The notes beneath the pieces were generated by a model, which saw only the letters and a list, made by a program, of their open reading frames with translations, did not search any database and was not told where the DNA came from. From assembly GCA_964585475.1 (NCBI GenBank), contig CAZPDF010000006.1, forward strand, positions 8,531 to 72,530: a stretch of 64,000 nucleotides of DNA, written 5' to 3'. The position numbers and the translations under genes are program-made. Position 1 is the stretch's first letter; each line of letters opens with the position of its first letter. This document shows positions 21,601 through 53,950 of this stretch, piece by piece. This DNA is from an uncultured Candidatus Saccharibacteria bacterium. Lineage in GTDB: Bacteria; Patescibacteriota; Minisyncoccia; Sungbacterales; HO2-52-23.

Positions 21601-22312
21601 AATGCTAAAGCGATCCGAGAAAGCGGGATTGATCCTTAAGCCCGTAAGCGAATTTGAGGATTATCTCGAGATTGCGTTTGACACCTGTGATCTCGGCTTC
21701 ATCAACTTGGGGACCGGAAATCATGGTTTGAGCACCACGGAGGACAATCTTTCCGAAGGCGTAATTTTCGCCGAGATAATGAAACCGTATCTAATGATGC
21801 GTCCCCATTGGCACGATAAACCGGAGCTCTTGGATCGCTATGTAACCGGACCCACTTTTGGCAATAAGTTCATCGCATTCGGAACCGTCAAGGCCCCGGG
21901 CGGGTATGAATACGGGTTTGACCTTAGAAACTCCCCTGCTACCAATACGGTTGACTGGGGCAATACGGTACGAGCCGGTGCCCGGACCGACCTAAGACGA
22001 GCAAACTACGGCGCAAGAATATTCGAAGAGAAACTAACCGTCATAATCACAGGAGATAAACACTTCTTGTCAGCACTCCTCATGGCCTTGCGGCTTCACT
22101 TAATGTCGCCTGCCGGAACTCACACAGACGCCTACGGCGAGCGCGGATTTCCGCCGAATGGCTCCGGCATTGCCCTTCTCGGACTTCCCGCCGAGGGCCC
22201 GGCATCAGGTCCAATCCTTATCCGTTACCTCCTTCTTCACCACCTCCGAGATTACATCGAGAAAAATCCCCGGCAGCTTGACTTTGAAGCGCTTCTCGTG
22301 AATCCTCTGTAA
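18656..22312 (+). CDS. Large (1218 aa) protein with a C-terminal calcineurin-like metallophosphoesterase domain; N-terminal 800 aa unknown with a coiled-coil segment
   Basis: C-terminal motifs ATDQHYGG (D-x-H), GDGD, VNDDPTQGHHF (GNH[DE]-like) and ITGDKHF (GH-x-H-like) in canonical order. Confidence 0.45.
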   Translation: MYSGKWNPETREGKKRLEHLLVIVKRLTYREDLKAELKKESMFAGFSTNVVLNKLNREQMTNPTSALSRAWAAIPLKPHVAIRLFPDEKRREALKQALTDPAKTLDDIERDFPEYKLLLKNQRDSINRFFGITRPHSGWTSRLGKKTPTPVSAKEEPTHSKNWWIRLTEEQKQEFLADYRKDYRLTGNTNDDYCEKWTRITGEQVSAESLSKAARYFGETRNRVQIVAEYKTIAQVLKAMDDRITQLILAGTLAEAGLDVLFETIKQEFREDLEKVQFNLTQEYFTKRTDKLVWTEGKAGALTELNDFIDKGFTAEKFHEYHRHIPLEMIKAKILQLTGTTNIENPPPFVATAFARGIGRLIGDIPEAETEPFQRAMKEFKIPEISFDQPLDIPFRDIKNFRTGVINGPNLGILHAPRIENNTFRQALAFAKLRGWEHLFLHGIFDLDMTKAEGPVKGIRALYSGRNTNIDVLDPGYQEEARRIIRAIEANEFTNEILYETAKEALMNLLRGLWKVMLHNKKPVFPGRISVILGPKEFDAITAAAHAEILYATLCKQEELKLERGAAANAVRRHQKQLSKLEGRIWDYEFELSQGPNPQDEEALRAKIEAVRQKIDETKQKIASHKQKVRELKKMEARTRMTNVRPEEWQRFHKIALTLVSILIERAIPNSKVISLGSTYIKVGPEPKDKIKFVIPGNLKITDASVSNYANTYSTEALSMKMAETIIICPPYSVGYAMTAREVDSKGTRGYASRIYNALTCIDGPFIREKTKNVIRESHPIGQLANHPMFQGGILEINCVDGMVTANPVTTETLASCERRAKGLIHGKNALADKYIWVMIATDQHYGGRAKEFLEDRETGKSLGMAEAVFHLMRKAGYGDGDKLPPFHIFTVNDDPTQGHHFPAEKEPHRHEMQYHRYEKELNKLRAQYRTEKNPRIKEALMEKIAAFSKRQVRVRGTDSYTRQMQDFIHRHIKGNIDMFSGMLKRSEKAGLILKPVSEFEDYLEIAFDTCDLGFINLGTGNHGLSTTEDNLSEGVIFAEIMKPYLMMRPHWHDKPELLDRYVTGPTFGNKFIAFGTVKAPGGYEYGFDLRNSPATNTVDWGNTVRAGARTDLRRANYGARIFEEKLTVIITGDKHFLSALLMALRLHLMSPAGTHTDAYGERGFPPNGSGIALLGLPAEGPASGPILIRYLLLHHLRDYIEKNPRQLDFEALLVNPL

Positions 22313-22419: not shown

Positions 22420-23028
22420 TTAAAAAGGCAGCTCGGTAATTACTTCATCAATTACGCCGTGGGTTCCCATGGCCTTGGCTTGGGTAACATCAAGCCAGTA
22501 ATCCAGTTTTTTTGTTTTGGCCAGCAACTCCTCAATGTCTAGTCCGATTCTTTGCGCAATGATATTCATAACGATTCGGTTGATACGCTTCATCTCGTCT
22601 GCCCGCTCTTCTGTGACATTCACCTCTTCCTCTCGAAAAAGAATTGAATCGCTGACTTGGTGGAGGAGAAATTGCGTATGCGGAGTTGCGAATCTTTTGG
22701 TGCCCGCCTGGATAATCACGGAAGCCATGGAGGCCACAAGACCCATGCCAACGATATTTACAGTAATCCCCCTTGCAGTGATAACCCCAATCGCATCGTG
22801 TATTCCAATACCGTAATATACATCGCCACCGGGAGAATTTAGTATGATCCAAATCGGTAGCTTCTCGGACAAGCAGCGTTCGCTTATATACACGAGGTCG
22901 CGACAGAAATTACCACACACGGCAGCGTCAACCGCATCGTCGATAAATAAAATCCGTCTAGCTCTAAGATTATAATCCCGTTCATCTTCGGTCCTTAAAA
23001 GAGACGGTTTTCTTGACGGTTCGGGCAT
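22420..23028 (-). CDS. clpP: ATP-dependent Clp protease proteolytic subunit (ClpP family); the ORF extends to 23085, and a start at 23028 has an AAGGAG RBS
   Basis: LNSPGGDVYYGIGIHD, GMGLVASMASVI (catalytic Ser) and LLHQV (catalytic His) blocks. Confidence 0.7.
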   Translation of the reverse strand: MPEPSRKPSLLRTEDERDYNLRARRILFIDDAVDAAVCGNFCRDLVYISERCLSEKLPIWIILNSPGGDVYYGIGIHDAIGVITARGITVNIVGMGLVASMASVIIQAGTKRFATPHTQFLLHQVSDSILFREEEVNVTEERADEMKRINRIVMNIIAQRIGLDIEELLAKTKKLDYWLDVTQAKAMGTHGVIDEVITELPF

Positions 23029-23201
23029 CGCTTTTCTCCTTTTAGGTTCTGATGCCAGAATAGGGCCTATATAGGAAAATTGCAATATTCAACCATTCCC
23101 CCCTTCGGGGGATTTTTTGCTTCTTGGCGCGTTCGTACCTATACCCGTAGTTTGATATAATAAAATAAGCATCTTCACAATGAAAAATACGGGAGAAAAC
23201 G

Positions 23202-25271
23202 ATGCTTGATAAGGACCAGGGGCCGCCGATATCTTCCACCCGCGTATTTTCTGGAAGCGTGCCGTTAAAGAGGGTCCATCTGCCAAACATAGTGCTTTTT
23301 CCTTCCGGACTTCACGGCGATCTTAAGTTCACGGAAAAGGAAATAAGGGCCGGGTATCTTGAATATACGAGGCCCAAACCTTATCTTGTGCTCCAGCCGC
23401 AAATTACCCGAAATCCCAATATCGGCATAGGGCTTCTCGGAAAAATCTTAAATAGACGCGAGGAAAACGGTGTGCAAAGATTCGACCTTATGGGCATCCT
23501 GCGCGTACGCATTACCGGAATAGAAAATAAAAAAGGTATGCTGTTTGCGAAAATACTCCCCATTTTAGATCGCCCGTCCCCTACAGAAATTGAGCAAAAC
23601 CCGGATTTTCATTCAGCACTGCCAATATTTAAGGGCCTTTGTGAAGAATTGCTGGAAGGAATTGACGATGAACTTACCGCAGAGCAGTGGCTGCAGGCAA
23701 TCATGGAAAAAGCAAGAAATGCGGATTCCGAAACCATATCCCAAGTCATTGATGCGATCATGAATCTTCTCAACCACCTTGAAATCGGCGGAGGGGACGG
23801 CTTTGACATGTCTATGCCTTCCGTCATCATTTTCCAGGAAGAAGACACGCTGAAACGCCTTATGCTCTGCATCGGGCTTCTGGACAAGCTACTCCACGGC
23901 GAAATTATTGAGAAACCGCCTGAAAAAAGGGGAAGAGATGGCCACAAGATCCGTAAGCCGGATGATGATCCCGTAAAGATTGCCACGCATGATCAAAAAA
24001 TAGTTAGCAGAAAGGAGCTCGTGAACGTAATATTCTATGACGAAGCGGCTCCTCCGGATAATACTGATCCGGACGAAACGGCTGAACTGGATATTCCGGA
24101 AAGCACTGACCCGCCGATTATTGCTAAAAGCAGAGAATTTCTGTCAGGGAGAGTCATCGGGCAAGACAGGGCCATCCGCACTATTGTTCGTTCTTTCAAT
24201 CTGGCCAAGGCCGGAATATTTCCCAAAGAAGGGCCCCTGCTGATTCTTTATTGCGCTGGTCCCTCTCGGGTTGGAAAAACGGAAACCGCTTTTGCGCTCG
24301 GCGACATGCTCTGGCAACTGGAAAAAGACGTACTGGCTAGAGCCAAAGAGAAAGGGCAAAAGCTTCCCTTCTCGGAAGAAGATATTGCATCGCCCCCGCT
24401 TATTAAAATTGATTGTGGTCTATTGGCGGGATCCTTGACGCACGGCGCATCAAATCTTATTGGGGCGCCGGCGGGATTTGTGGGGAGCAAAGGCACTGGC
24501 AAATCTGCACAGCCACCCATTCTCTCGCCGAAAAATTTCCCTTCCAACAGAATTAGGGTTCTCCTTTTTGATGAATTTGAAAAAGCCATACTTCAATCGC
24601 GGGACTACGGAGCGGAATTAATCGGTATATTGGTTAATATGCTTGATAAGGGTATTCTCGTAAATAACTGGGGCGACGAAGTTTCTTTCCATCTCACCAT
24701 TGTCATCTTCACTTCTAACCTCGGCACCAAAGAAATCATGGACAAGGCCGAAGACCCCAAAATCGGTTTTGGCCGGGGAACCAAGAGGAAACATCTGACG
24801 GAGGAGGAGATAGAAAAGCTCAATGACCGTATTTACGAAAGCACGAGGGAGATCTACGAGAAAACGTTCCCGCAAGAATTCCGCAATAGAATAACGCGTT
24901 TCATCGTCTATCGATTCCTAACTTATTTGGACTATAGGGCGATCATCGCCAAGGAATTCGCCTATTTCCAAAAGGTTATAAAGGAGCAGTGCGGCATTGA
25001 GGTGGTGCTTAGCGAAGACGCAGTTCAATGGATGCTTTCGGAGATCCGTGCCGAGGAGGGAGTGCAGAAACTTAGGATTTTCATGGAGAAAGAAATTGCC
25101 GACCCGCTCGCTCGTGCCCACAATCTCGGGCGGCTCAAGCGCGGCAAAACATACGAGGTCTACACCAAACAAAAACCCGTAAAGCGTAACGGAAAAAATG
25201 GCGAAGACGGAGACAGCGAAACCAAAGCAGTATTCAAAATTAAAAAAGTAGAGCAGGGCTCGCCCCGTTAG
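23202..25271 (+). CDS. Lon N-terminal domain fused to a single Clp/Hsp100-type AAA+ module (ClpA/B/C D2-like unfoldase)
   Basis: N-terminal LON substrate-binding-like region (PNIVLFPSGLHGDLKF...GILRVRI). AAA+ region: GQDRAIRTIVRSF...ILYCAGPSRVGKTETAFALG (Walker A) ... IKIDCG...LIGAPAGFVGS ... VLLFDEFEKA (Walker B). Confidence 0.6.
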   Translation: MLDKDQGPPISSTRVFSGSVPLKRVHLPNIVLFPSGLHGDLKFTEKEIRAGYLEYTRPKPYLVLQPQITRNPNIGIGLLGKILNRREENGVQRFDLMGILRVRITGIENKKGMLFAKILPILDRPSPTEIEQNPDFHSALPIFKGLCEELLEGIDDELTAEQWLQAIMEKARNADSETISQVIDAIMNLLNHLEIGGGDGFDMSMPSVIIFQEEDTLKRLMLCIGLLDKLLHGEIIEKPPEKRGRDGHKIRKPDDDPVKIATHDQKIVSRKELVNVIFYDEAAPPDNTDPDETAELDIPESTDPPIIAKSREFLSGRVIGQDRAIRTIVRSFNLAKAGIFPKEGPLLILYCAGPSRVGKTETAFALGDMLWQLEKDVLARAKEKGQKLPFSEEDIASPPLIKIDCGLLAGSLTHGASNLIGAPAGFVGSKGTGKSAQPPILSPKNFPSNRIRVLLFDEFEKAILQSRDYGAELIGILVNMLDKGILVNNWGDEVSFHLTIVIFTSNLGTKEIMDKAEDPKIGFGRGTKRKHLTEEEIEKLNDRIYESTREIYEKTFPQEFRNRITRFIVYRFLTYLDYRAIIAKEFAYFQKVIKEQCGIEVVLSEDAVQWMLSEIRAEEGVQKLRIFMEKEIADPLARAHNLGRLKRGKTYEVYTKQKPVKRNGKNGEDGDSETKAVFKIKKVEQGSPR

Positions 25272-31834: not shown

Positions 31835-32287
31835 TCAGACTGTTTGACGTGGAACACTTGGTTTAGCTCTATAAATGAGACTATCTAGGTAAGGAAATTT
31901 TTTTAGCCACCAATCAAATTGAGTTCCTTTGTGCCCAAGAAGTTTATATCTACACATCTTCACAATCTTATTTTTTAGAGTGGGAATATCGCGGATTATT
32001 AACATTGCAAAATGTCTTCCTTGGTGGGTATACTCATATACCCAGTTATGAACTACTAAATAGTCTCTAATTGCTTCAATTAGCTCTTTATCCCGCACGT
32101 GCATTTTTAGAACAAAGGATGGAATCTTTTCTCCTGTACGGTAAGTATCTGCACCGAAATGTCCCTCTCCTTCAATCAAACCGAGTATGTAATCATCAGT
32201 TAACCTTTCCCTAATTTCATCCCTTGAGTAGTATGTTTCCTCCATTATTCCATCATAAAACTTGCCTTTATTTCTGCCCCTAGACAT
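31835..32287 (-). CDS. LAGLIDADG-type homing endonuclease-like protein (free-standing)
   Basis: YILGLIEGEGHFGADT motif (LAGLIDADG variant) near the N-terminus; ~150 aa single-motif size. Confidence 0.5.
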   Translation of the reverse strand: MSRGRNKGKFYDGIMEETYYSRDEIRERLTDDYILGLIEGEGHFGADTYRTGEKIPSFVLKMHVRDKELIEAIRDYLVVHNWVYEYTHQGRHFAMLIIRDIPTLKNKIVKMCRYKLLGHKGTQFDWWLKKFPYLDSLIYRAKPSVPRQTV

Positions 32288-32373
32288 ATTTGTTCTACAT
32301 GAAACAGAGTGGATGTTACACTTACTGTTAAATATAACATTTTCACGGACCTATAAAAGGATAGATATCCACC

Positions 32374-32763
32374 ATGCCTTCTCAAAAAAGAAAATTTGGT
32401 GATATTGGGGAGAAATATGCAGAAGAGTTTTTAATCAAAAAAGATTATAGAATTCTGGAAAAGAACTATAGGATCAAAAATTTAGGGGAAATCGATATCG
32501 TTGCAGAAAAAAACGATAAGCTAATATTCTTTGAGGTCAAAACTAGAGATATAAAACATGAAACAGCGTTCCCAATCGGCTTTAGTATTAACGAGCGGAA
32601 GAGAAGAAATTTAGCACGGATATGTCAGCTTTATCTCACAGAGAAGCGCATTCCGTTTCAACGTAAATGGCAGGTAGACGCCATTTTCTTACTGGTTGAT
32701 TCTACTAATGGATCTAGCTCTATTGAGCACCTTGAGAATATTCTTTGGGAGCGATATTATTGA
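32374..32763 (+). CDS. YraN family (UPF0102) endonuclease
   Basis: GDIGEKYAEEFLIKKDYRILEKNYR...GEIDIVAEKNDKLIFFEVKTR, the PD-(D/E)xK core of UPF0102. Confidence 0.75.
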   Translation: MPSQKRKFGDIGEKYAEEFLIKKDYRILEKNYRIKNLGEIDIVAEKNDKLIFFEVKTRDIKHETAFPIGFSINERKRRNLARICQLYLTEKRIPFQRKWQVDAIFLLVDSTNGSSSIEHLENILWERYY

Positions 32764-33072
32764 CCCCGCACCTTTTGTGCGCTAGTTAATGGATATGCAC
32801 TACGTCTATATTCTTAAAAGTATATCGGCATCCATTCTGTACATAGGCCGTACCGACAATCTTGAAAGAAGAATGAGAGAGCATAACTCTGGGGGTACTC
32901 GCACCACGAGAAAATATATACCTTGGGTTATGGTATACTGCGAAGGCTATTTTGATATTGAAGACGCCAGGTCAAGGGAAAGAAGTTTGAAGCAGTTCGG
33001 AAGGGTGTATTCTCAACTTAAACGCCGTATTGCAAAAAGCCTTCTTAGCGCACAAAAGGTGCGGGGTTGAAG
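32759..33072 (+). mobile_element. GIY-YIG nuclease cassette bounded by 24-bp terminal inverted repeats (TTGACCCCGCACCTTTTGTGCGCT)
   Basis: Left IR 32759-32784 and right IR 33047-33072 are near-perfect reverse complements. The same IRs flank a gene-less element at 34611-34766. Confidence 0.7.
32789..33070 (+). CDS. GIY-YIG domain nuclease (93 aa)
   Basis: HYVYILKS...LYIGRTDNLERRMREHN...R...E GIY-YIG catalytic motifs. Confidence 0.8.
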   Translation: MDMHYVYILKSISASILYIGRTDNLERRMREHNSGGTRTTRKYIPWVMVYCEGYFDIEDARSRERSLKQFGRVYSQLKRRIAKSLLSAQKVRG

Positions 33073-34937: not shown

Positions 34938-36740
34938 ATGGCAGAGAAAGGTAAAGATGACTCTAGGGGACTCTCCAAGTTTCTTCCGATGACCGACGCG
35001 ACCTATCGGCGTCGTCTTACCGAGTACGAAGTTCAGGTTCAGGACCTTCAGACTTATATCAGATCTCTTGAAGTCGAAACCGTACACCTGCGAAAAAAGC
35101 TCGAAGAAGCTCCTAAGGAGTTTCTGGTGCTTGAGAATAAACTTCGCGAAGCGAACCGGCAACTAATACAGGCCTTTAACCAGAACGAGAAGCTGGTCAA
35201 CGCCCTCTACGAGTCCCGCGAGCAGATCCAGTCGCTCAAAGAAGAAGTGGACAAGCTTTGCGCTCCGCCTTCCACCTACGGCGTGTATCTGTCAGTCAAC
35301 GAGGACGGAACCGTAAACATTCTTGCTCAAGGACGAAAGGTAAAAGTAAACCTTCATCCTTCGATCAAGCCGGAGTCGCTGAAGCCCGGGCAGGAGCTCA
35401 TCCTGAACGAGGGCCTGAACGTCGTCGAGGCGGCGGGCTACGAGATCCAGGGCGACGTCGTCGTGCTGAAGGAGGTGCTGGACTCCGAGCGGGCGGTGGT
35501 CACCCTGCGGGCGGACGAGGACAAGGTGGGGATCATCGCCGACCCGCTGCGACCGCTGAAGCTGAAGGTCGGCGACCACATCCTGATGGACTCCAAGTCC
35601 GGCTACCTGCTCGAGAAGCTCCCCAAGAGCGAGGTCGAGGACCTGACGCTCGAAGAGGTGCCCGACATCTCCTACGAAGACATCGGCGGGCTCACGACCC
35701 AGATCGAGGCGATCCGCGACGCCGTGGAGCTCCCCTACCTCTACGCCGACTACTACAGGGAGCACAAGCTCACCCCGCCCAAGGGCGTCCTGCTCTACGG
35801 GCCGCCCGGCTGCGGCAAGACCATGATCGCCAAGGCGGTGGCCAACAATCTGGCGGAGAAGATCTCCGAGCAGCGCGGCGAGAAGATCAAGGGATACTTC
35901 CTGAACATCAAGGGGCCGGAGCTGCTGAACAAGTATGTGGGCGAGACCGAACGGAAGATCCGCGAGATTTTCATGAAGGCCAAGGAGAAGGCCGCCGAGG
36001 ACGTGCCGGTCATCGTGTTCTTCGACGAGATGGACGCCCTCTTCCGCACGCGGGGCTCCGGCATCTCCTCCGACGTGGAGACGACCATCGTGCCCCAGCT
36101 CCTGGCGGAGATCGACGGCGTCGAGGGTCTGAAGAACGTCATCGTGATCGGGGCCTCCAACCGGCAGGACTTGATTGATCCTGCAATTCTTCGTCCCGGG
36201 CGTCTGGATATTAAGATCAAGATTTTGCGGCCGGATAAAGATGCGGCAGTCGATATCTTCGACAAATACCTCACGATCGAAGTCCCTCTTCATGACTCGG
36301 AGATGCGGCAGGACGGCGGTGAGAGAGTTGATACTCTCAAGCGCCTCATCGCCTCGACCGTTGAGGAGATGTATGCGCTTACTGAAGAAAACAGGTTCCT
36401 CGAGGTAACGTATGCCAACGGCGATAAGGAAGTTCTTTACTTCAAGGATTTCTCCTCCGGCGCCATGATTGAATCAATCGTGCGTCGTGCCAAGAAACTC
36501 GCGCTCAAGCGCTACATCCAGACGAGCCAGAAGGGCATCGTGCTTGACGATCTACTGGCTGCAGTTCGCGAAGAATTCAAGGAGAACGAAGATCTTCCGA
36601 ATACGACCAACCCGGACGACTGGGCTAAGATCGCCGGCAAGAAGGGCGAGCGGATTGTATACGTGAAGCCCTTGATGGGAGAACCGAAAGACAAGCAGCG
36701 GACCGTGGAACAGGTGATCACTACCGGACAGTACCTGTAG
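34938..36740 (+). CDS. Proteasome-associated AAA+ ATPase ARC/Mpa homolog (GGAGGAG RBS; the ORF extends upstream to a TTG at 34893)
   Basis: N-terminal coiled coil, inter-domain OB region, Walker A GPPGCGKT, Walker [11 protein letters not shown], and C-terminal ...TTGQYL (the GQYL proteasome-docking motif of Mpa/ARC). Confidence 0.85.
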
Positions 36741-36759
36741 TCCTTCTGACAACTACTCC

Positions 36760-36827
36760 GTCACCCTGAACAAAGTGAAGGGTCTCAAAACAACCAAGAG
36801 ATCCTTCGGCTAGCGCCTCAGGATGAC
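36760..36827. repeat. Palindromic intergenic element, family A, copy 4 (degenerate)
   Basis: GTCACCCTGAACAAAGTGAAGGGTCTC ... GAGATCCTTCGGCTAGCGCCTCAGGATGAC. Confidence 0.6.
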
Positions 36828-36957
36828 CACCATAAAAAATTACAAGTTGCTCCGGCTCTGCCCGGAGTTTTTTATTTGCTAAATAGGCAAGCTTGCGCTA
36901 CGCTTGCTCCAAGAATATGTTCTTCACAAATTCAATAATTTGAAGGGAGGTGGGAAT

Positions 36958-38988
36958 ATGGCGATTCCGAAGCTTATCGGAACCGAAACTGAAGCTACGC
37001 TTTCGGTAAAAGACCGGCGCTCATCCGCCGAGTTTCAGGGAAATGTGTATGAGGTGGTGAGTCTTCTTTGGACATTCGCAAGTAACAATCGGGTAAGCCC
37101 GATTGGCGGCAGGAGGGAGTTTGAGAACATTGCCGCGTTGGAGAATGAGATTAAGAATGTCTATGGATACACCGCCAGGCGTCTGGTGACGATTGAGGAA
37201 ATCAAAGAGGCCATCCGGCGTCTCGGCTCAAAAGTTTTCTTCAGTCCCATTGAGGGGCTAGTGCTAGAAAACGGGGCCCGAGCATATATGGAGCCGGCTG
37301 GGGCGGATCCGGAATGGAGCACTCCGGTGTGTCTCCTGCCCAGTGAAGTTCTCATGCAGGAGCGGATGCTTGAATGCGCTTTTGCCAAATCCGCCAGACA
37401 ACTTTCGGATGACAAACAGGAGATTCGTCTTTACAAGAACGCGAGCGACGGGCAAGGCCATTCGCATGGACTTCATTCCTCGTTTTTCATCTCTCGCGAA
37501 TTCAGAGAGCGGCTTTTTTTGCGATCGCGCGATGCATGGAGTCAAGATCGTTCCATAAACTACTGGGGTCGCACCATGCAGGACTTGATATCTTTTGATG
37601 TCTTAATGTGGCTGATAAAAGGGGCGGGCAAGGTGGGCAGTGAAGATGTGTGGGCTCCGGCAACTTATCAAATTTCCCAGCGGTCCGATCATATCCGCGG
37701 AGGATTGGTCGGCGGAAATACCACCGGAGACCGACCTCTTATCAATAGCCGCGACGAGGCCTTGTCCGATTTCGAGCGTTTTTCGCGGCTTCATGATATT
37801 CATAACGACGGCAATCGCTCGCTGACTGCTATAAGTTTGAAACTCGGCGTGAAACAAGTATTCCTTTCCATGCTTGAGGACGATATGTGTTTTCTTGACT
37901 GGCATCTGGCCGAGCCGATCGTGGCCCTGATACAAATTTCCCGAGATCTTTCGCTGTCAAGACCCGTCAAGGTGTATGTGAGAAGTGAGAAACGAACTGA
38001 TGAGCGTCTGCCCGAAGATCTTCTTTGGGATATCGCCGGGAAAATGGAGCAATACGCCAAAGTAACCCCGCTTCATACGGAGCACCTGAATCTTATCGAA
38101 GAGTTTAAACAGGTGATCTCGCTCCTTAGAAAAAAATCTCCTAATTTAAGCAAGATTCTCGACTGGGCGATTAAGAGAAAATATATTCGCGCGAAAATGA
38201 AGAAGTGGGGTTTAAACCCCGATAATCGGAAACACTGGGCTGATCCCAGAGTGCGGCAGGTGGATATTAAGTATGGCGACCTAACTAATGAAACCAAGGG
38301 CTGGGAATCTATTGCTGAATATTGCGAAGTTAAGGATGCGGAGAAATATTTTGCCGTGAATATTCCCGATATCTTAACTCCACCGACCAGCACTGCTCAT
38401 TTCCTGCGCGGGTTTCTCGTGCACCATCCCCATCTTAGGCAGTGGGTTGAGTTTAAGGATTGGCATAGGTTCGCCGTAGCCATCCCCGGCCGTTCGCGAT
38501 GGATTATCTCGATTCCTGACCCAAGATTGTTTCATCAGGATCATCTTTTCTCACTGCGTCAGGGTCTGGGAATGCTGGATACTCCGGAGCAAGCCGAAAT
38601 CTTTTTTGAAAGAATCGCGAGTCAGGCCAGAAAAACAACTCCGCCGAACTTCTGCGCGCCGATTATCATAACTCCTGGCGAGCAAAAAGCGCTACCGCCT
38701 GCTCGTCCAACCGAAGTGCCGGTCAAAAAAACAGCAGAATCATGCTTACAGCTTGAATTCCGCCTCTACCATTTGGAAACGGCAGCGGATCCTTTGCTCT
38801 TTCGCTTGGTCCCTCAAGCGTGCGAAGAGCGGCCTCGAGAAATGCCGCACGAGCCGGAGGATCTCTATGAGCGATCACTGGGGATTCTAGAGGAAGTCCA
38901 TCCGGTTGAGGAAAAGATGGGCATTGACGACCCGAAGCCCTGTGGTATGCTACCTTCAGTACTTGAGAGCGAGGAGTATCATGGCTGA
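36958..38988 (+). CDS. Pup ligase/deamidase-family protein, long form (Dop-like by position; ~677 aa)
   Basis: N-terminal IGTETE (the GIETE[FY]G motif of PafA/Dop carboxylate-amine ligase fold); INSRDEALSDFERFSRLHDI region homologous to PafA/Dop [28 protein letters not shown] RBS sits before the ATG at 36958. The stop overlaps the Pup start codon. Confidence 0.75.
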   Translation: MAIPKLIGTETEATLSVKDRRSSAEFQGNVYEVVSLLWTFASNNRVSPIGGRREFENIAALENEIKNVYGYTARRLVTIEEIKEAIRRLGSKVFFSPIEGLVLENGARAYMEPAGADPEWSTPVCLLPSEVLMQERMLECAFAKSARQLSDDKQEIRLYKNASDGQGHSHGLHSSFFISREFRERLFLRSRDAWSQDRSINYWGRTMQDLISFDVLMWLIKGAGKVGSEDVWAPATYQISQRSDHIRGGLVGGNTTGDRPLINSRDEALSDFERFSRLHDIHNDGNRSLTAISLKLGVKQVFLSMLEDDMCFLDWHLAEPIVALIQISRDLSLSRPVKVYVRSEKRTDERLPEDLLWDIAGKMEQYAKVTPLHTEHLNLIEEFKQVISLLRKKSPNLSKILDWAIKRKYIRAKMKKWGLNPDNRKHWADPRVRQVDIKYGDLTNETKGWESIAEYCEVKDAEKYFAVNIPDILTPPTSTAHFLRGFLVHHPHLRQWVEFKDWHRFAVAIPGRSRWIISIPDPRLFHQDHLFSLRQGLGMLDTPEQAEIFFERIASQARKTTPPNFCAPIIITPGEQKALPPARPTEVPVKKTAESCLQLEFRLYHLETAADPLLFRLVPQACEERPREMPHEPEDLYERSLGILEEVHPVEEKMGIDDPKPCGMLPSVLESEEYHG

Positions 38989-39181
38989 AGTAGAGAAGCG
39001 AAAGACTGGGCATCCCAAGGGTACGCCCGAGGGCGAAGGTGGATCTGCAAACCCCAATGTTGCCAAGAAAGGGAAAAAGCTAAAGGAAGACATGGATAAA
39101 CTTCTGGACGAGATTGACGGTATTCTTGAAGAGAACGCCGAGGAGTTTGTAAAAAGCTATGTCCAGCGCGGAGGAGAATAG
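38981..39181 (+). CDS. pup: Prokaryotic ubiquitin-like protein Pup (66 aa, C-terminal GGE)
   Basis: MAEVEKRKTGHPKG...DKLLDEIDGILEENAEEFVKSYVQRGGE. Close match to the Pup C-terminal Mpa-binding helix (LDEID.VLEENAE.FV..YVQKGGQ); ends in GGE. Confidence 0.85.
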   Translation: MAEVEKRKTGHPKGTPEGEGGSANPNVAKKGKKLKEDMDKLLDEIDGILEENAEEFVKSYVQRGGE

Positions 39182-39290
39182 CATGCGAATAGCGCGACCC
39201 TCGCCATCGGGTTCGGGGTATACGAATGCGCCCATGCGAATACGGTGATAAGTATCGCCAAGGTTTTACGCCTTGGTTTTTTGATCCACG

Positions 39291-39408
39291 CACCAGAAGA
39301 CCACGGGCTTGCCTGTGGAGGAATGGTGGTCTTCGGTGCGGGATTTCGCTCCACTGGCAAGCCTTCGGCTTGACCGTAAGCGAGGATACCACGGGCTTGC
39401 CCGTAGAG
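39291..39408 (+). repeat. Family B structured repeat (CCACGGGCTTGCCCGTGG hairpins), copy 1
   Basis: ~115 nt with >80% identity to the reverse complement of 46770-46895; contains the palindromes CCACGGGCTTGCC(T/C)GTGG and GGTCTTCGGTGC/…CAGAAGACC. Confidence 0.7.
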
Positions 39409-39624
39409 CTTTATTTTCAAGCGAGCGAGTGAAAAACAAAGATCTTTGCTTTTCCGAGCGAGCGCCGAAAACAAAGGGTTTAATACCGTGATCTTTAGTG
39501 CTTGCGGTAGAACAAATTTAAGTCGTCCCGGCCCTCCGTGCCCGGGTTCAGTACCCTTTATTTTCCGGCCCCAACATGCCATATTTGATTTACGCTCTTT
39601 AAATAAACAGATTGGAGGTGAATT

Positions 39625-41175
39625 ATGCGGTCCTTGGTGGATCTTGGGCGAATCCGCGGCATAGAAGTTGAGCATCAAGCCCTCGTTACCATAAACGGCA
39701 AGACGCAGCCGGAATTTTTCATGGCGCCGGAACGGCAAAATGTTTTCTTTGAGAAACTTCTTCCTCCGGAGCTTACGTCTTCTTGGCTGACCCCGATGGT
39801 AAATTGGCTGTTCCTTGCTAACGGCGCCAAAATAGGAATTGATAGCGGTTGGCATCCGGAATATGCAACGCAAGAGGTAGATTGCTCTCTGGTCGCGCTT
39901 TCATGCGAAAAAGCAGGCGAGAATATCATGGCGGGAATAGCCAAGCGAGCGAATGAATACTGGAAGGAATATGGGATAACGGTGCGTTTCTTCAAAAATA
40001 ATTTGGATGCGTCAGGCCATGCCGATCACTCCTGCGGCATGCATGAGAGCTACATGTTTTTACGCGATGAGGATAAGCTCCGCATGGCTTATGTAGTTGA
40101 GTTGCTCTGGCCGCATCTTGTTTCGCGCAGCTTCTATACCGGAAATGGCTGGGTGGATAAAGAACTTTCATTTCATATCTCGCAGCGCGCCAAGGCCATT
40201 GAAGCATTTTTAACCGGAGCTACAACAAGCAAGCGCCCAATAGTCAACACCCGCGATGAGCCGCATGCCGATGCCGAAAAGTACCGCCGGATACATATTA
40301 TAGTCGGCGATTCTCTTATGGCTGATACGGCAATTTATTTGAGATCCGGAACTACCGCCTTGATTCTGGATATGATCGAGGAGGGCTTCCTTACAGAATG
40401 CCCCTTCCGCTGCGAGAACGATGAGAGAAAAGTGAAAATTCTGCATGATTTTTCCCAGGACATTACCCTGCGCAAGCCGGTCAAGTTTGATAGCGGTAAC
40501 TACACGATGGTTGATGTTCAGGAATGGTATTTTGAGCGGGCACAGGAATACTGCGAGAAAACCGGGCGCATGTCGGGAGAGCGAGAAGACGTACTTCGCC
40601 GTTGGGGAGATAGGATAACGTATGCGCGAAGCGACGATCCGGTCGGCGTTCTCTCTTCGTGTGTGGATTGGGCCGCCAAGAAGTGCCTCATCGAAGAAGA
40701 CATGAAGCGGTATGGCTACGGGTTTAATACCCCGCCGGATTCCGAAATTACGGTTTTGAAGAGGGATCCCAAAACCGGGAAGAGAAAAGAGGTACGCTCT
40801 CGGGTGTTTGATCATCTGAAAGCGCTGGATCTTAAGTTTTTGGAGCTTGGAGCGCAGGGCTACATGCAGAAACTTATTGAAACCGGTTTTATAGAGCGCC
40901 TGGCAACCGACGAGATGATAAGAGCCGTTGAGTATGGGCCCGTGCCGGATCTTCGCTCTTGCGCCAGGGCCGATGCGTGGCAATGGTATGTGGCTGAAGC
41001 TCAAAGGCGCGGCCGGGTGCTGACCGAAGCCGCAGACTGGATGTATTTTGCGGCCAAAGACGGGGACGAGAGGATAGAAAGATTCGGGAAAATGAAAGAC
41101 CCCTATGAAAGCCGCCTTAAGTTATTGTCGGCGCCGGAGGACACGGATTCTCAAGGGCCAACGGAAGCGCCATAG
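39625..41175 (+). CDS. Pup-protein ligase PafA-like (Pup ligase/deamidase family)
   Basis: [10 protein letters not shown] and [27 protein letters not shown] are near-identical to mycobacterial PafA/Dop blocks. N-terminal GIEVEH. GGAGGTG RBS. Confidence 0.85.
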   Translation: [516 protein letters not shown]

Positions 41176-41240
41176 GCCTTAATCGTACCGGACCAAGAGT
41201 CCGGTTTTAATTTGCGTGAAAATATTCTACTATAAGCAAT

Positions 41241-43206: not shown

Positions 43207-45771
43207 TTATTCAAAGTGTATTTCTCTCTCCATTTTTTCCAGCCGTTCTTTGAGTAAGGGATAAAGCCTAAGATCTGGGCTTTTTTGGATAAGTTCGATC
43301 GCCTCTCGTCTTACCTCGCGCACCAGCTTTACGTCCGTGACGGCCTCGATCACCGCATCCGGAACCCCCCATTGCCTTTGTCCGAAAAGGTCCCCCGGGC
43401 CTCGTATTTCAAGGTCTTTTTCCGCAAGTTCAAACCCGTTTTTTGCTTCAACCACCGCGCGAAGGCGGCGAGTTACCATGCCGTCCTCGCTCGGGAAAAG
43501 AAAACAGTACGACTGGTCGGCACCCCTCCCCACTCTTCCGCGGAATTGATGCAGAGTCGCAAGGCCGAATCTTTCTGCGCCCTCGATCATCATTATGGTG
43601 GCGTTCGGATTATCAATGCCTACTTCCACCACCGAAGTTGATACGAGAATTTGGATTTCTTCGTTTTTAAACTTTTTCATTACCGCTTCTTTCTCCTTGG
43701 ATTTTAATTTTCCGTGTAGCATCCCCACACTTAAATCTCTGAATATCTCGTCTTTCAGTTTTTTATATTCCTCTTTCACGGCTTTCACCTCGGCAAGCAG
43801 TAGCTTTGGTTGCGTCGTACCTGTCGTTTGTTGCTTGCCCACTCCGCTCTCGCTTGAGCGAGGCGAGTCGTTTGTCGCTAACTCTATTCGCGGACAAATG
43901 ACAAATGCCTGTCTTCCTCTCCCCACCTCCTCCCTAATAAATTGATACGCCTCGCCCCGTCTAGTTGGTTCTACAATTTTCGTAATGATTTCTTTTCTGG
44001 ATTTTGGCATCTCATCAAGGATGGAAAGGTCAAGGTCGCCGTAGACGGTAAGCGCCAAGGTGCGGGGAATCGGAGTCGCGCTCATGCTCAAAAAATGAGG
44101 CATGAGCGCCGCGGACTGACGCGGACTTGATTCCTCAAGCGCGGACCTACGCTGACTACGCGCTGTATCATATACAATTCTTTTTATCTCAGCTCCTTGA
44201 GGACCGAAGTTAACCAGTAGGGCTACTTTATATTCTGAACCCTTTACATAAGTCCATAGTTGCTTTTTTTCTGTAGTGCCTATAAAAGGAAGTGCTTTGA
44301 GTTCTATAATTACTTTGTCGTCAACAATAAAGTCCGGTTGATATATTCCAACTTTTTTACCTCCAAAAGTAACAGTTAGTGGTTTGCCTTCAACAAAATT
44401 TAAGCCGGCCGTCCTGAAAGCTTCTGCCAACGCCTTTTGATACACCGACTCTTTATGCCCGAATCCTATTTGATCTGTAACTTTAAAAACGCACCCCCGG
44501 ATTTTATAGGTGACATCCTCGTATAAAAGTTTTCCCGATTCCGCGTTAGTCCGCGTTATATTCTCTGTCCGCGCCTGTCCGCGAACCAGCGCCATGCGTT
44601 GGTTGACTCCAAATCGATGTTGTTCGTCCACCACGACAAGTCCGAGATCTGGAATTTTAAACCTTTCCTGTATTAGCGCATGCGTGCCAACGATAATATC
44701 GGGGTCGTGCGCAATCTTTTTTTCCGCGCCGAGTGCTAAACCCACTTTTATTCCGAAAGTCGCAAGCAATTTTTCAATCGTTTCATAGTGCTGCCTCGCC
44801 AAGATCTCGGTTGGCGCCATGAAGGCTACCCTGTATCCGGCTTTTATGGCCAGAAGTGAGGCGGCTGCTGCAACCACTGTTTTGCCGGACCCCACATCTC
44901 CTTCCAGGAGCCGGTTCATGGGTTTGGGTTTTGAAATATCCTGCGCGATTTCCCAGATGGAACGGCGTTGGGCGCTGGTGAGTTCGTAAGGCAGCGAGCG
45001 CACGAACTCTTTGAGGAGGGGAACCATCGCAGGAATTTCGGGCGCCTGATACTGCTTGAGTGTCAGGCGCGCCTTTAGAGCCCTCAGCTGTATGAGAAGG
45101 AGTGTCTCGAAATTGAAACGGCGGCGCGCTCGCTCCGCCTCCGATTTGTTTTTGGGGAAATGAATTGCGCCGAGCGCGTCTTGAAGGTTGGGCAGGAGAT
45201 ATTTATGACGCGTTTCCGAAGGCAAAGGGTCGGAGAGTTTCGACTTTAGCTCAATAAACGATTTTATAAGGAAGCGGAGCCAGCGTGAAGAAATTCCAGA
45301 AGTTTCCGGATAAATTGCGACGAGCCCCCCTGTGTGTATGTTGGTTACTGGTAACTGGTTACTGGCTATTTTCTCATATGCCGGATTCTGCAGATAAAGT
45401 CCTCCGGTTCCCGTAGCTGTTTTTCCGGACATACTCACCGTATCCCCCGCCTTTAAATTCCGCAGTAAAAACGGCTGGTTAAACCAAAGTGCTTTTATTG
45501 CTCCGGTTCCATCCTCAATTTTGGCCTCGGTAAGAAACATACGCTTTCGCAGGGTTCTGCGGCCGGAAATAGTTTTTATTTTCCCCATGATTGTTACGGT
45601 CTCGCCAAGCAAGAGATCGCGTATGGCCTTTCTATTTGAAAAATCTTCGTAGCGCGTGGGGAAATGGAAGAGCAAATCCCGAATGGTTTTTATGCCAAGG
45701 CGTTTCAGGGGCGGTACGATCCGCCGGCTTATTTTGGGGACGTTTTCTATCGGGGTACTCAAGGAAATCAT
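43207..45771 (-). CDS. recG: ATP-dependent DNA helicase RecG with an in-frame ~165-aa GxxExxY-domain insertion between helicase motifs II and III (the ORF extends to 45870; start at 45771 has a GGAGGG RBS)
   Basis: Wedge domain, Walker A GDVGSGKT, motif II VVDEQHRFGV, motif III SATPIPRT, motif VI QLHQFRGRVGRG. The insertion contains GFGHKESVYQKALAEAF...YQPDFIVDDKVIIELKAL, matching the GxxExxY protein family signature. Confidence 0.85.
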   Translation of the reverse strand: MISLSTPIENVPKISRRIVPPLKRLGIKTIRDLLFHFPTRYEDFSNRKAIRDLLLGETVTIMGKIKTISGRRTLRKRMFLTEAKIEDGTGAIKALWFNQPFLLRNLKAGDTVSMSGKTATGTGGLYLQNPAYEKIASNQLPVTNIHTGGLVAIYPETSGISSRWLRFLIKSFIELKSKLSDPLPSETRHKYLLPNLQDALGAIHFPKNKSEAERARRRFNFETLLLIQLRALKARLTLKQYQAPEIPAMVPLLKEFVRSLPYELTSAQRRSIWEIAQDISKPKPMNRLLEGDVGSGKTVVAAAASLLAIKAGYRVAFMAPTEILARQHYETIEKLLATFGIKVGLALGAEKKIAHDPDIIVGTHALIQERFKIPDLGLVVVDEQHRFGVNQRMALVRGQARTENITRTNAESGKLLYEDVTYKIRGCVFKVTDQIGFGHKESVYQKALAEAFRTAGLNFVEGKPLTVTFGGKKVGIYQPDFIVDDKVIIELKALPFIGTTEKKQLWTYVKGSEYKVALLVNFGPQGAEIKRIVYDTARSQRRSALEESSPRQSAALMPHFLSMSATPIPRTLALTVYGDLDLSILDEMPKSRKEIITKIVEPTRRGEAYQFIREEVGRGRQAFVICPRIELATNDSPRSSESGVGKQQTTGTTQPKLLLAEVKAVKEEYKKLKDEIFRDLSVGMLHGKLKSKEKEAVMKKFKNEEIQILVSTSVVEVGIDNPNATIMMIEGAERFGLATLHQFRGRVGRGADQSYCFLFPSEDGMVTRRLRAVVEAKNGFELAEKDLEIRGPGDLFGQRQWGVPDAVIEAVTDVKLVREVRREAIELIQKSPDLRLYPLLKERLEKMEREIHFE

Positions 45772-45904
45772 GTATTCACCCTCCCACCAAAAAGCTACGG
45801 GTGTCAAACCGGGATGAGGTGCATAAGCCCGCAGGACAATAAGCCAAATGTTGCGGCTGTACCCCCTCAAATTTGGTGGGAGGGTTAAGTATATAGCTTA
45901 TTTT

Positions 45905-46611: not shown

Positions 46612-46769
46612 GTAGCGTATTCTAACACGAAGATATGTTAAAGAAAAGCTTATTGAAGCGCATTAAGAAAAATGCGGAGAGAATAGGCATAAAATTTTGA
46701 TAAATGTTATGCCCAAAACTTCTAACGGGATTCATAACTGCATGATAGCAAATTTGATTTAAAAATGAA

Positions 46770-46895
46770 GCTCCACGGGCAAGCCCGTGATATCCCGTCC
46801 TACGGTCGCGCCCTGAAGGCGCGCCCGTGGAGCGAAATCCAGCACCGAAGACCACCATTCATCCACGGGCAAGCCCGTGGTCTTCTGGTGCTGTT
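46770..46895 (-). repeat. Family B structured repeat, copy 2 (inverted relative to copy 1)
   Basis: Reverse complement aligns with 39291-39408 (CAGAAGACCACGGGCTTGCCCGTGGATGAATGGTGGTCTTCGGTGC...). Confidence 0.7.
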
Positions 46896-46944
46896 GACCA
46901 AATGCGCGGAGTAAGTCCGCGCATTTTGTCTTCCGAGGCGGATT

Positions 46945-52030: not shown

Positions 52031-52084
52031 TTGTGTGGATAACTTAACTTGTATACATTCTATTTATTTTCTATAATAGTATAT

Positions 52085-53950
52085 ATGCTCACAAAAAAGC
52101 AAACACAAGTCCTAGATTTCATAAAGGCTTATATGGCAAAGCATAGCTATGCCCCCTCCCTCGATGAGATCAAGAAGAAGTTTAAGCTCGCCTCTGTATC
52201 TACTGCTCATTACTACATAAGCAAATTACAAGATGCTGGTTTTTTGAATAAAGAACACAATCAACCTCGTGCTGTTTCGACCGTTAAAGCAAAACAGACT
52301 GTTGAAGTTCCCATTTTAGGAGCAATCGCGGCAGGTGAGCCTATTGAGGCGATAGAAATTCCTGACGAAACAATAACGATCACAAGAGATGAAATTGGAA
52401 AGCAGGGCAAGCACTATGCTTTGCGTGTGCAAGGTAGCAGTATGATTGATGAGGGTATTTTTGATGGCGATATTGTCGTTATACGCAAACAAGAAGTAGC
52501 AGAAAATGGTCAAACTGTTGTGGCGGTCATTGATGATAACGAGGCGACACTCAAAAAACTGTATCGTGAAAATGGAAAGTTTAGACTTCAACCGGCAAAT
52601 CCAACACTATCTCCAATTTATCGTGATGAAGTGGAAGTGAGAGGTGTAGTTGTAAAGATTATTCGAAACCTCGAATCACAACTGGATCAAGGACAATCAA
52701 GGGATGAGAAGTATGTCCGTAAAATAGATTATTCATGGGACTACAGAGGAGAAAAAACAAAGTCGTATACGCACGGAATACATACCTATCCGGCGATGTT
52801 CATTCCACAAGTCGGACGAAGATTGTTAGAAACTTATAGTAAAGAGGGCGATACAATTTGTGATATTTTCTGTGGCTCTGGTTCAGCCTTAGTCGAAAGT
52901 AGGTTGATAGGGAGAAATGCTTACGGCATTGATCTCAATCCTTTGGCCATTTTTCTTGCGAAAGCAAAAACAACTCCAATCAATCCACAAAAACTAACCA
53001 AAGAATACATTATCCTGCTCAGCAGAGTAGAAAAAATAAAGGACAATGAGATAAAAAGACCTGATTTTAAGAATATTGATTTTTGGTTTAAGGACAAGGT
53101 AATAGTTAAACTTGCGAAACTAAAGAAAGCTATACAAGAAATAAAAGACGAGACCATTCAGAATTTCTTGATGGTTGCTTTTAGTGAGACAGTTCGGTAT
53201 TCCTCAAATACAAAGACTGGAGAGTTTAAGTTGGTGCGTGTTAAAGGAGAAAAACTGGAAAAGCATGATCCTGATATCTTGGGCATATTTCGAAAAAATG
53301 CAGAGAAAAATATCGCAGGTATGACGGATTTTTATAAAGATGCAAAAAATGATTCATGGACAAAAATAATCTATGGTGATTCATCAAAAGATAACGGAAT
53401 AAAAGCAAATTCTATTGATTGCATCATCACCTCACCGCCATATGGCGATAGTCGCACTACAGTAGCTTACGGACAGTTTTCTAGACTCTCGGCGCAGTGG
53501 ATTGATGTGTTTGAAGATCCAAATGACGCCTCTGGGGTAGATAACGATCTTCTCGGGGGTAGAGCTACTAAAAATTTAACCCATACACTTTCATCAGCTT
53601 ATCTTAAGGAATCATTAGACAAAATTGTGAAGCAAGACGAAGCAAGAGCAAAAGATGTATTAAGTTTTAATCTTGGATTGAATGAATGTCTGAAACAAGC
53701 TCACAGAATACTTAAACCAAGAAAGTATTTTTGTCTTGTTGTCGGAAATAGATTAGTCAAACAAGTACGAATTCCCACCGACTTTATTATTGCTGAATTA
53801 GCAGAAAAGATAGGTTTTACTTGTGAAGATATAGCCGTTCGAAATATCCCCGGCAAAAGAATGCCAATCAAAAATTCTCCAACGAATATTGTGGGTGCTT
53901 TAGAGGAAACAATGAACAAGGAAAGTATTGTTGTGCTAAGAAAGAATTAG
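52085..53950 (+). CDS. LexA-like repressor (wHTH plus S24 peptidase) fused to an N4-cytosine/N6-adenine DNA methyltransferase (the ORF extends upstream to 52049)
   Basis: N-terminal MLTKKQTQVLDFIKAYMAKHSYAPSLDEIKKKF (LexA DNA-binding domain) and VQGSSMIDEGIFDGDIVVIRKQ...TVVAVIDDNEATLKKL (S24 Ser/Lys dyad). C-terminal MTase motif I DIFCGSGS and motif IV IITSPPYGD. Confidence 0.7.
   Translation: MLTKKQTQVLDFIKAYMAKHSYAPSLDEIKKKFKLASVSTAHYYISKLQDAGFLNKEHNQPRAVSTVKAKQTVEVPILGAIAAGEPIEAIEIPDETITITRDEIGKQGKHYALRVQGSSMIDEGIFDGDIVVIRKQEVAENGQTVVAVIDDNEATLKKLYRENGKFRLQPANPTLSPIYRDEVEVRGVVVKIIRNLESQLDQGQSRDEKYVRKIDYSWDYRGEKTKSYTHGIHTYPAMFIPQVGRRLLETYSKEGDTICDIFCGSGSALVESRLIGRNAYGIDLNPLAIFLAKAKTTPINPQKLTKEYIILLSRVEKIKDNEIKRPDFKNIDFWFKDKVIVKLAKLKKAIQEIKDETIQNFLMVAFSETVRYSSNTKTGEFKLVRVKGEKLEKHDPDILGIFRKNAEKNIAGMTDFYKDAKNDSWTKIIYGDSSKDNGIKANSIDCIITSPPYGDSRTTVAYGQFSRLSAQWIDVFEDPNDASGVDNDLLGGRATKNLTHTLSSAYLKESLDKIVKQDEARAKDVLSFNLGLNECLKQAHRILKPRKYFCLVVGNRLVKQVRIPTDFIIAELAEKIGFTCEDIAVRNIPGKRMPIKNSPTNIVGALEETMNKESIVVLRKN

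Follow-up and report, generated by a model that had tools for sequence, protein, structure and literature searches.

A pupylation gene cassette without linked 20S proteasome genes on a Candidatus Sungbacteria contig

Nearly all studies of pupylation concern Actinobacteria, in which tagging directs proteins to the proteasome or, in Corynebacterium, leads to disassembly that depends on the ATPase ARC. Here we describe a cassette of pupylation genes at positions 34938-41175 of a 64,000-nucleotide stretch of contig CAZPDF010000006.1 (hereafter, the window). The cassette encodes an Mpa/ARC ATPase, a Dop-like member of the Pup ligase family, Pup, and a PafA-like ligase. Judging by its GyrA, the host is a bacterium of the Candidate Phyla Radiation (CPR), from Candidatus Sungbacteria. 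We think that the cassette is a working pupylation and unfoldase module that resides in this lineage without a linked 20S proteasome, and we give this reading a probability of about 0.55.

The locus resembles that of Corynebacterium glutamicum (ARC, Dop, Pup, PafA), with the four components in the same order, pup before pafA, and no prcBA (the genes for the 20S subunits PrcB and PrcA). In both, Pup ends in Glu and is ligation-ready, and the enzymes of the ligase family have diverged more than those of lineages with a proteasome (PMC3511204). By analogy, tagging here would be likelier to end in unfolding or disassembly than in degradation (PMC8223512, PMC12288473). Unlike C. glutamicum, the window comes from a CPR host, encodes a long Dop-like protein with Glu in place of Asp94 (active-site residues are in the numbering of Acidothermus Dop, AcelDop, from PMC8599861), and has an Mpa that is a recent foreign copy. 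In actinobacteria that lack proteasome genes, pup lies directly before pafA, the enzymes are more variable, and the C-terminal interaction motif of the ATPase has been lost (PMC3511204). The CPR-type loci described below fit the first two patterns but not the third: unlike the ATPases of those actinobacteria, Mpa here keeps its GQYL tail.

Mycobacterium tuberculosis (mpa-dop-pup-prcB-prcA-pafA) has homologous Mpa and Pup and enzymes of the same Dop/PafA fold, in the same order apart from prcBA. The window differs in lacking prcBA, in having PupE rather than PupQ, in ligases that score below the equivalog cut-offs, and in the altered catalytic site of the Dop-like protein. Another comparison is with the operon of Methylomirabilota and Rokubacteria (for example, locus L216). 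Its Mpa is 84-94% identical to that of the window and has the same TGQYL end, and the Pup of these genomes shares 74% identity over its whole length and is nearly the same in the C-terminal half. Unlike the window, these operons have PrcB, PrcA, and canonical forms of Dop and PafA, which score about 560 bits against the Nitrospirae enzymes, and the listed ones are 62-70% GC.

Under the name UBact, Lehmann et al. reportedly described in 2017 tags resembling Pup that occur outside Actinobacteria together with homologues of Mpa, Dop/PafA and the proteasome, and their paper is reported to list some Parcubacteria-group candidate phyla. The UBact tag is said to end in R[T/S]G[E/Q]. Unlike UBact, the tag in the window ends in QRGGE and its locus has no proteasome genes. 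PMC7947786 places Dop and PafA in Actinobacteria and Nitrospirae, with scattered occurrences in NC10, Armatimonadetes, Verrucomicrobia, Nitrospinae, Firmicutes, Proteobacteria and Planctomycetes, and does not mention CPR. Our literature search found nothing that links pupylation to CPR, Patescibacteria, Parcubacteria or Sungbacteria. An earlier interpretation of this DNA from its letters alone (the sequence-only reading) had taken Pup systems to be characteristic of Actinobacteria and Nitrospirae. This was too narrow: our genome scan found complete operons in many metagenome-assembled genomes (MAGs) of Myxococcota, Spirochaetales, Entotheonella and Gemmatimonadota, and solitary pup genes in Rokubacteria/Methylomirabilota, among others.

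The features of the cassette and its surroundings are (aa, amino acids):

34938-36740, + strand: mpa/arc, 600 aa, proteasome-type AAA+ unfoldase (TIGR03689, Pfam, and alignment to 7px9)
36849-36868, + strand: terminator-like hairpin and T-run in the gap between mpa and the Dop-like gene (consensus scan only)
36958-38988, + strand: Dop-like gene, long member of the Pup ligase family, 676 aa (PF03136, 220 bits)
38981-39181, + strand: pup, 66 aa (PF05639 and TIGR03687)
39257-39277, + strand: terminator-like hairpin and T-run directly 3' of pup (the same stretch is kept after the pup stop in L005)
39280-39420, strand not assigned: dispersed repeat, copy 1, in the spacer between pup and the PafA-like gene (match to copy 2)
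39625-41175, + strand: PafA-like Pup ligase, 516 aa, with a GGAGGTG Shine-Dalgarno sequence upstream (PF03136, 271 bits)
41187-41205, + strand: terminator-like hairpin 3' of the PafA-like gene (consensus scan)
46759-46902, strand not assigned: dispersed repeat, copy 2, in another intergenic region outside the cassette (match to copy 1)

All four open reading frames (ORFs) are collinear and intact and have Shine-Dalgarno sequences. Their identities and order, as given in the sequence-only reading, are borne out by the coordinates and by Pfam and NCBIfam hidden Markov models (HMMs). Mpa scores 745 bits against TIGR03689 (pup_AAA; equivalog cut-off 504.75) and has the Pfam domains Prot_ATP_ID_OB_N, Prot_ATP_ID_OB_C and AAA (PF17758, PF16450, PF00004). 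Its architecture is an N-terminal coiled coil, a double OB and one AAA domain, followed by a beta-grasp region at the C-terminus. The alignment with M. tuberculosis Mpa (7px9, residues 32-609, 679 bits) runs the full length, C-terminal region included. The protein ends in TTGQYL, so the GQYL proteasome-interaction motif is indeed present. Pup, which has the predicted 66 residues, scores above the cut-offs of both Pup models (74.6 bits against PF05639, cut-off 27; 61.8 bits against TIGR03687, cut-off 41.45) and 47.7 bits against M. tuberculosis Pup (3m9d). It has the canonical ending, QRGGE. The start of pup overlaps the stop codon of the Dop-like gene by 8 nucleotides (nt) (ATGGCTGA), with a GAGGAG Shine-Dalgarno sequence upstream. 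The second gene does belong to the Dop/PafA family, as proposed, at 676 rather than 677 aa. Terminator-like sites after Mpa, pup and the PafA-like gene suggest up to three transcription units, from a consensus-only scan whose overall site count was not above chance. PADLOC gave nothing beyond generic AAA matches and thus no indication of an anti-phage system.

The assignment to two ligase-family genes was right about the family, but both proteins are divergent and fall below the NCBIfam equivalog cut-offs for Dop and PafA. The PafA-like protein scores 250.3 bits against the PafA model (TIGR03686, cut-off 551.3) and 215 bits against the Dop model, and is far above the cut-off for Pup_ligase (271 bits versus 25). 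In Acidothermus Dop, the magnesium ligands are Glu8, Glu10, Tyr92, Glu99, His155 and His241, the catalytic residue is Asp94, and Arg227 binds phosphate (PMC8599861). The PafA-like protein keeps the equivalents of Glu8, Glu10, Asp94, Glu99, His155, Arg227 and His241; Tyr92 is replaced by Gly, as it is in P0002 and L005. Its GxExE strand and NGA(K/R) strand are about 49 residues apart (about 41 in canonical PafA and 74 in Dop), and it has no insertion the size of the Dop-loop. These features make ligase activity probable. The Dop-like protein leans slightly toward Dop (184.5 bits against TIGR03688, cut-off 492.3; 163.4 bits against TIGR03686, cut-off 551).

We then asked where the cassette comes from. 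GyrA (5934-8396) shares 81% identity with a protein that carries the label Candidatus Sungbacteria, and almost all of the next hundred or so named matches are labelled Sungbacteria, Parcubacteria or Patescibacteria. By this evidence the host is a CPR bacterium, which agrees with the earlier view that it is not actinobacterial. The window also has type IV pilus genes (T2SSF, PilM), S1, ClpP, and small pilin/TrbC-like genes of the conjugative type (type IV secretion system). Relatives of the PafA-like protein were sought among 5.8 billion proteins, and related contigs were taken from these matches. Very few were found, only three of them above 50% identity. The closest relatives are 60%, 55%, 36% and 36% identical, followed by canonical PafA from Nitrospirae and Methylomirabilota at about 35%; a search of a genome-contig collection with the PafA-like protein found no relative. 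L068 and L096 come from a scan for the Pup C-terminus in one genome per GTDB species. The related loci are:

L003: Mpa-Dop-Pup-PafA
L005: Mpa-Pup-PafA-GT2...RecG, with downstream synteny as in the window (GT2 77% identical, RecG 65%)
L006-L010: two tandem ligase paralogues adjoining RecG
L068: Mpa-Dop-Pup-PafA without prcBA, in Ca. Sungbacteria RIFCSPLOWO2_02_FULL_51_17 (MHQW01000025.1), with GT2 downstream (58% identical)
L096: Mpa-Dop-Pup-PafA without prcBA, in an unclassified MAG with 48% GC
L251: Mpa-Dop-PafA
L254: Mpa-Dop-Pup

Because the same GT2 and RecG neighbours are found in L005, and the same GT2 in the Sungbacteria MAG (L068), we consider the cassette to be resident; by this synteny, it holds a stable chromosomal position within Sungbacteria. 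It was already present, without comment, in a public MAG from 2016. The ligase pair and pup are old, fast-diverging residents of the lineage. Between the window and L005, PafA is 55% identical and Mpa is 79% identical, compared with the 77% for GT2; between the window and L068, PafA is 28% identical and Dop is 25% identical, compared with 58% for GT2. By these comparisons, the ligases diverge faster than neighbouring genes. In L005, which has no Dop-like gene, tblastn found no Dop remnant in the 570-nt gap between Mpa and pup.

Next, we considered the proteasome genes. The queries for a phmmer search were the PrcB and PrcA of L011, a canonical operon from Nitrospirae (Mpa-Dop-Pup-PrcB-PrcA-PafA), and it found nothing at E ≤ 10 in the six-frame ORFs of the window and related loci. 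Profile HMMs built from 49 PrcB and 31 PrcA sequences gave no match better than E = 1 in any of the window, L001-L010, L068, L096, L251, L252 and L253. (L252 and L253 are the parts of the contig outside the window.) These HMMs do recognise the Nitrospirae control, at 386 and 340 bits, and each also detects the paralogous subunit. The Pfam calls for the contig do not include PF00227. Thus, PrcA and PrcB are absent from the window, from 78.4 of the 79.6 kb of the contig, and from eight related loci. The gap between pup and the second ligase gene does lack prcB and prcA, as the sequence-only reading had said, and a check of the contig found none in the 78.4 kb; its description of the module as proteasome-less holds for this much of the contig and for the related loci, and we limit the claim to these. 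We infer that the genome as a whole may lack the 20S proteasome.

How might such a module work? The enzymatic activities and the fate of tagged proteins are taken by analogy with characterized systems. Pup would be made in a ligation-ready form; since it ends in GGE, no deamidation should be needed, so there would be no deamidase step. The N-terminal coiled coils of the Mpa hexamer would capture the Pup helix. Mpa would then thread the tagged protein through its pore and unfold or disassemble it, much as ARC acts on ferritin in the proteasome-free Corynebacterium. The long Dop-like protein might bind Pup and reverse or tune the tagging. A conserved pupylation module in a reduced CPR genome would be a simple natural system for studying Pup and Mpa without a linked 20S proteasome. 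Current understanding is not overturned: this is a real, conserved variant of pupylation in a CPR host, with a mosaic history.

Several observations weigh against a working module without a 20S proteasome. First, the sequence covered is only about 80 kb of the genome. Second, the docking tail, G[QH]YL, is kept in all eight CPR-type Mpa proteins, even when the GC content at third codon positions (GC3) of the gene is like that of the host (0.43 in L251, 0.57 in L003 and 0.52 in L005). Third, in the Dop-like protein, Asp94 is replaced by Glu (AYME), HENY has become HSSF, and His241 is replaced by Leu (DEALSD). As the canonical Asp94, the Glu of HENY, and His241 are gone, the protein may not be a depupylase.

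The first two of these points lead to an alternative that we consider possible but doubtful, which is that the Pup-proteasome system is complete: prcB and prcA would lie elsewhere in the genome, Mpa would dock on the 20S proteasome via GQYL, and tagged proteins would be degraded. The Mpa proteins of the window, L003, L005, L068, L251 and L254 all end in TGQYL (GHYL in L096), although the linker before the tail differs in both sequence and length among CPR-type Mpa proteins. The loss of the motif in proteasome-free actinobacteria (PMC3511204) points the same way. Genes of the system do relocate, as Methylomirabilota/Rokubacteria keep pup outside the operon. But neither subunit was found in 78 kb of contig or in any of the eight related loci. 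In the lineages surveyed, moreover, the operon nearly always includes prcBA, both in most genome loci and in the metagenome. (A metagenome scan for the Mpa C-terminal region gave at least 120 stretches, 100 of them with an Mpa gene; the figures from it are for the matches listed. All of the listed stretches with Mpa are 62-70% GC, and 97 of the 100 end in GQYL. PrcB is present in 38 of the 44 listed stretches that have at least 3 kb of downstream DNA. No CPR-type loci are among the matches listed, which are all high-GC and of the donor clade discussed below.) Also, the hyper-divergent ligases match the pattern of lineages that lack the proteasome, in line with a working module that has no linked 20S.

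The sequence-only reading had found it curious that GQYL is retained without a proteasome. For the window, recent import of Mpa from a proteasome-bearing donor is sufficient and largely explains the retention. The puzzle persists for the long-resident Mpa genes of CPR type. In these, a conserved tail follows variable linkers, and three of the genes have host-like GC3; this suggests that the tail is under selection and hence has a docking partner. The partner could be either a 20S proteasome encoded elsewhere or something else. Fast-evolving ligases, a conserved and recently replaced Mpa, and a retained GQYL form a combination that is absent from the actinobacterial cases, and it predicts either a 20S proteasome elsewhere or a new docking partner. 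A more speculative joint reading, which we think unlikely, is that GQYL is selected in CPR bacteria that truly lack the 20S proteasome. In that case, Mpa could dock on another resident protease or ring, or on the 20S proteasome of a Methylomirabilota or Rokubacteria host cell that bears this episymbiont; the import of a near-identical Mpa would mark a physical pairing of host and symbiont, and the long Dop-like subfamily, given its Glu-based site and the DLYERSLG motif described below, would have a new activity or act as an adaptor. As a separate observation, about 100 extra residues, absent from the window's Mpa, are inserted into the C-terminal half of the ATPase in the Mpa proteins of L068 (5863-7203) and L251 (83-2218), and both still end in NTGQYL.

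The third point raises the question of whether the cassette is a decaying remnant, with a dead Dop-like protein and no more protein tagging. Canonical active-site residues are lost, the Dop-like gene is missing from L005 and pup is missing from the L251 cluster, and ligase identity between relatives is low. Against decay, all four ORFs are intact with Shine-Dalgarno sequences, Mpa was re-acquired and kept, and the binding half of Pup is almost invariant. Furthermore, the substitutions in the Dop-like protein are shared by a subfamily. An exhaustive HMMER search with this protein against 1.84 billion representatives gave 40 matches at E ≤ 1e-30, of which about 17 are long proteins (572-699 aa) that form one subfamily with it. 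Asp94 is Glu in 17 of 17, the Glu of HENY is lost in 16 of 17, and the GD box reads IN[GS]EGNRSPW, with Asp replaced by Glu; His241 is kept in 14 of 17 (it is Leu in the window's protein). These conserved, coordinated substitutions point to a selected variant rather than a dead enzyme. We therefore consider decay quite unlikely, and within a working module the Dop-like protein could be a variant depupylase or a regulator.

Other features of the Dop-like protein are also unusual. In Dop, a loop of about 40 residues (the Dop-loop) separates the first strand from the NGAR strand (PMC7947786). At that position the Dop-like protein of the window has about 94 inserted residues, which have no convincing alignment to the canonical Dop-loop and are modelled with low confidence by AlphaFold2. 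The C-terminal tail of about 105 residues is predicted to be disordered (the predicted local distance difference test score, pLDDT, is below 35 for residues 572-676). The AlphaFold2 model was built from a 7-sequence alignment and its mean pLDDT, 57, is too low for a meaningful comparison of folds. A motif near the C-terminus, [DE][LI][YA][ED]RS[LM]G, occurs in six members of the subfamily (DLYERSLG at residue 635 of the window's protein). The subfamily is apparently undescribed, and with its replacement of Asp94, loss of the HENY Glu and altered GD box, it could inform the mechanism of Dop and PafA.

We then examined the history of Mpa, as it bears on whether the cassette was acquired horizontally. 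The window's Mpa is 84-86% identical to most of the listed high-GC Mpa proteins, and 93.9% identical over 593 aa to that of L216. L216 is 68% GC and reads Mpa-Dop-PrcB-PrcA-PafA; proteins labelled Methylomirabilota or Methylomirabilia share 85-92% identity with its PafA. The DNA similarity between the window and L216 (87.8% over 1,775 nt) is confined to 34967-36739, which is the Mpa ORF. Identity to the Mpa of L003 and L005 is lower, at 80.6% and 79.1%. In a neighbour-joining tree, the window's Mpa falls within the high-GC clade of Methylomirabilota type as the sister of L216, with L003 and L005 at the base of the clade.

The codon usage of Mpa is also foreign. Its GC3 is 0.77 (z = 3.9), while the other genes in the window have a mean of 0.479 (standard deviation 0.075, maximum 0.59) and donor-type Mpa genes have 0.95. 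The values for the other cassette genes are 0.535 (Dop-like), 0.507 (Pup) and 0.567 (PafA-like). At identical residues, the window uses the same codon as L216 71.5% of the time, versus 43% for L003. Synonymous differences comprise 112 changes from GC to AT and 13 from AT to GC, an excess expected when a gene of high GC comes into line with a genome of lower GC. Most simply, the resident Mpa was recently replaced by a copy from a proteasome-bearing bacterium of the Methylomirabilota/Rokubacteria type. The foreign Mpa could work with the resident Pup because the Mpa-binding half of Pup is nearly identical in the window, L003, and Rokubacteria/Methylomirabilota; this near-identity would have made the swap functional. 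A transfer at 88% nucleotide identity from such a donor hints at whom this Sungbacterium lives with.

If Mpa was imported, the whole four-gene cassette might have been acquired at the same time, recently and en bloc from one donor. The GC content of the cassette (0.524) is slightly above that of the window (0.469), and Mpa and Pup are both closest to homologues from Methylomirabilota/Rokubacteria, in the case of Pup (74% identical) after that of L003 (78%). However, the foreign codon composition is found only in Mpa (the GC3 of the other three genes, 0.51-0.57, is host-like), DNA similarity to the donor type ends at the Mpa ORF, and the ligases share only about 35% identity with their donor-type counterparts (versus 94% for Mpa). 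The shared position by GT2/RecG, in L005 and in the named Sungbacteria MAG, also argues for residence. We disfavour a single recent acquisition as very unlikely. The sequence-only reading had suggested that the module was horizontally acquired, which stands for Mpa, as a recent import, but not for the Dop-like, Pup and PafA-like genes, given their host-like codons and their shared position in L005 and L068.

Chimeric assembly, or contamination by a co-sampled Methylomirabilota genome, is a most improbable origin for the Mpa gene, despite the gene's high similarity to a high-GC organism within a low-GC contig: the identical Mpa occurs with the same Dop-like gene on three contigs and in two assemblies (ENA ERZ27284378 and Logan SRR8863434; P0254), its DNA is 12% diverged from the nearest high-GC relative, its GC3 is intermediate and the differences run strongly from GC to AT, and the relatives all have Mpa at this position.

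The spacer between pup and the PafA-like gene had been described as filled with repeats that take the place of prcBA. The first part is correct and the second is not. The gap is 443 nt in the window and about 100 nt in L003 and L005; the additional sequence is a repeat of about 140 nt, dispersed and palindromic within itself. There are two inverted copies, both intergenic: 39280-39420 matches 46902-46759 (reverse strand) with 85.4% identity over 144 nt (E = 2e-41). The motif CCACGGGCTTGCC occurs 9 times, versus 1.2 expected. The spacer's fold z-score of -2.4 is due to the palindromic nature of the repeat. Rfam has no match for the spacer or the repeat, which may be a small mobile or REP-like (repetitive extragenic palindromic) element of this genome. 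A remnant of prcBA in the spacer was considered and rejected, as neither the PrcA nor the PrcB HMM matches there and the extra DNA is the dispersed repeat.

Some of the related and comparison loci have features of their own. Directly upstream of the cassette in L003, on the opposite strand (166-5407), are genes for a ThiF/E1-like protein, proteins of 184 aa and 562 aa without Pfam matches, and a 634-aa AAA ATPase. This cluster may be a second ubiquitin-like conjugation module, or a defence module, beside the Pup genes. The tandem Pup-ligase paralogues adjoining RecG in L006-L010 (511 and 509 aa; L006 3942-7124, for example) both have Leu in place of His241, and these contigs, of up to 11.5 kb, have no Mpa and no detectable Pup; the locus recurs in five assemblies, one of them from Rifle groundwater. 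In the window, RecG (43207-45870, - strand) has a PDDEXK_3 domain (a GxxExxY-type nuclease) inserted within the helicase, and the RecG proteins of L005 and L006 (697-713 aa) are without this insertion.

In the surveyed loci (L012-L130 and L131-L250), genomes of the Methylomirabilota/Rokubacteria type have the operon Mpa-Dop-PrcB-PrcA-PafA, and pup stands alone elsewhere. Two proteins of about 700 aa, P0076 and P0077, are apparent fusions of PrcA and PafA: each has both a Proteasome domain (PF00227) and a Pup_ligase domain, and their identity to the PrcA and PafA that L216 encodes as separate ORFs is 86% and 92%. A MAG with the label Candidatus Nitrosocosmicus, an archaeon, includes a contig with a Rokubacteria-type solitary pup (L072), which is probably contamination of the bin. 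Several Spirochaetales MAGs have complete Mpa-Dop-Pup-PrcB-PrcA-PafA operons; this phylum is not listed in PMC7947786.

Elsewhere in the window, within 52049-54699, a single ORF encodes a 633-aa fusion of a LexA DNA-binding domain, an S24 peptidase domain and an N6/N4 DNA methylase. It is convergent, with a 4-nt overlap, with a gene for a restriction endonuclease of the MvaI/BcnI family, in an island of 37% GC. The two genes resemble a restriction-modification unit in which a self-cleaving repressor of the LexA type is joined to the methylase. An ORF of 1,218 aa without a Pfam match (18656-22312) adjoins ClpP (22420-23085, - strand) and a Clp-type AAA_2 ATPase (23202-25271). Finally, upstream of the cassette (31835-33070) is a run of small nuclease-type genes, namely LAGLIDADG (31835-32287), UPF0102/YraN (32374-32763) and GIY-YIG (32789-33070), within the lowest-GC part of that half of the window.

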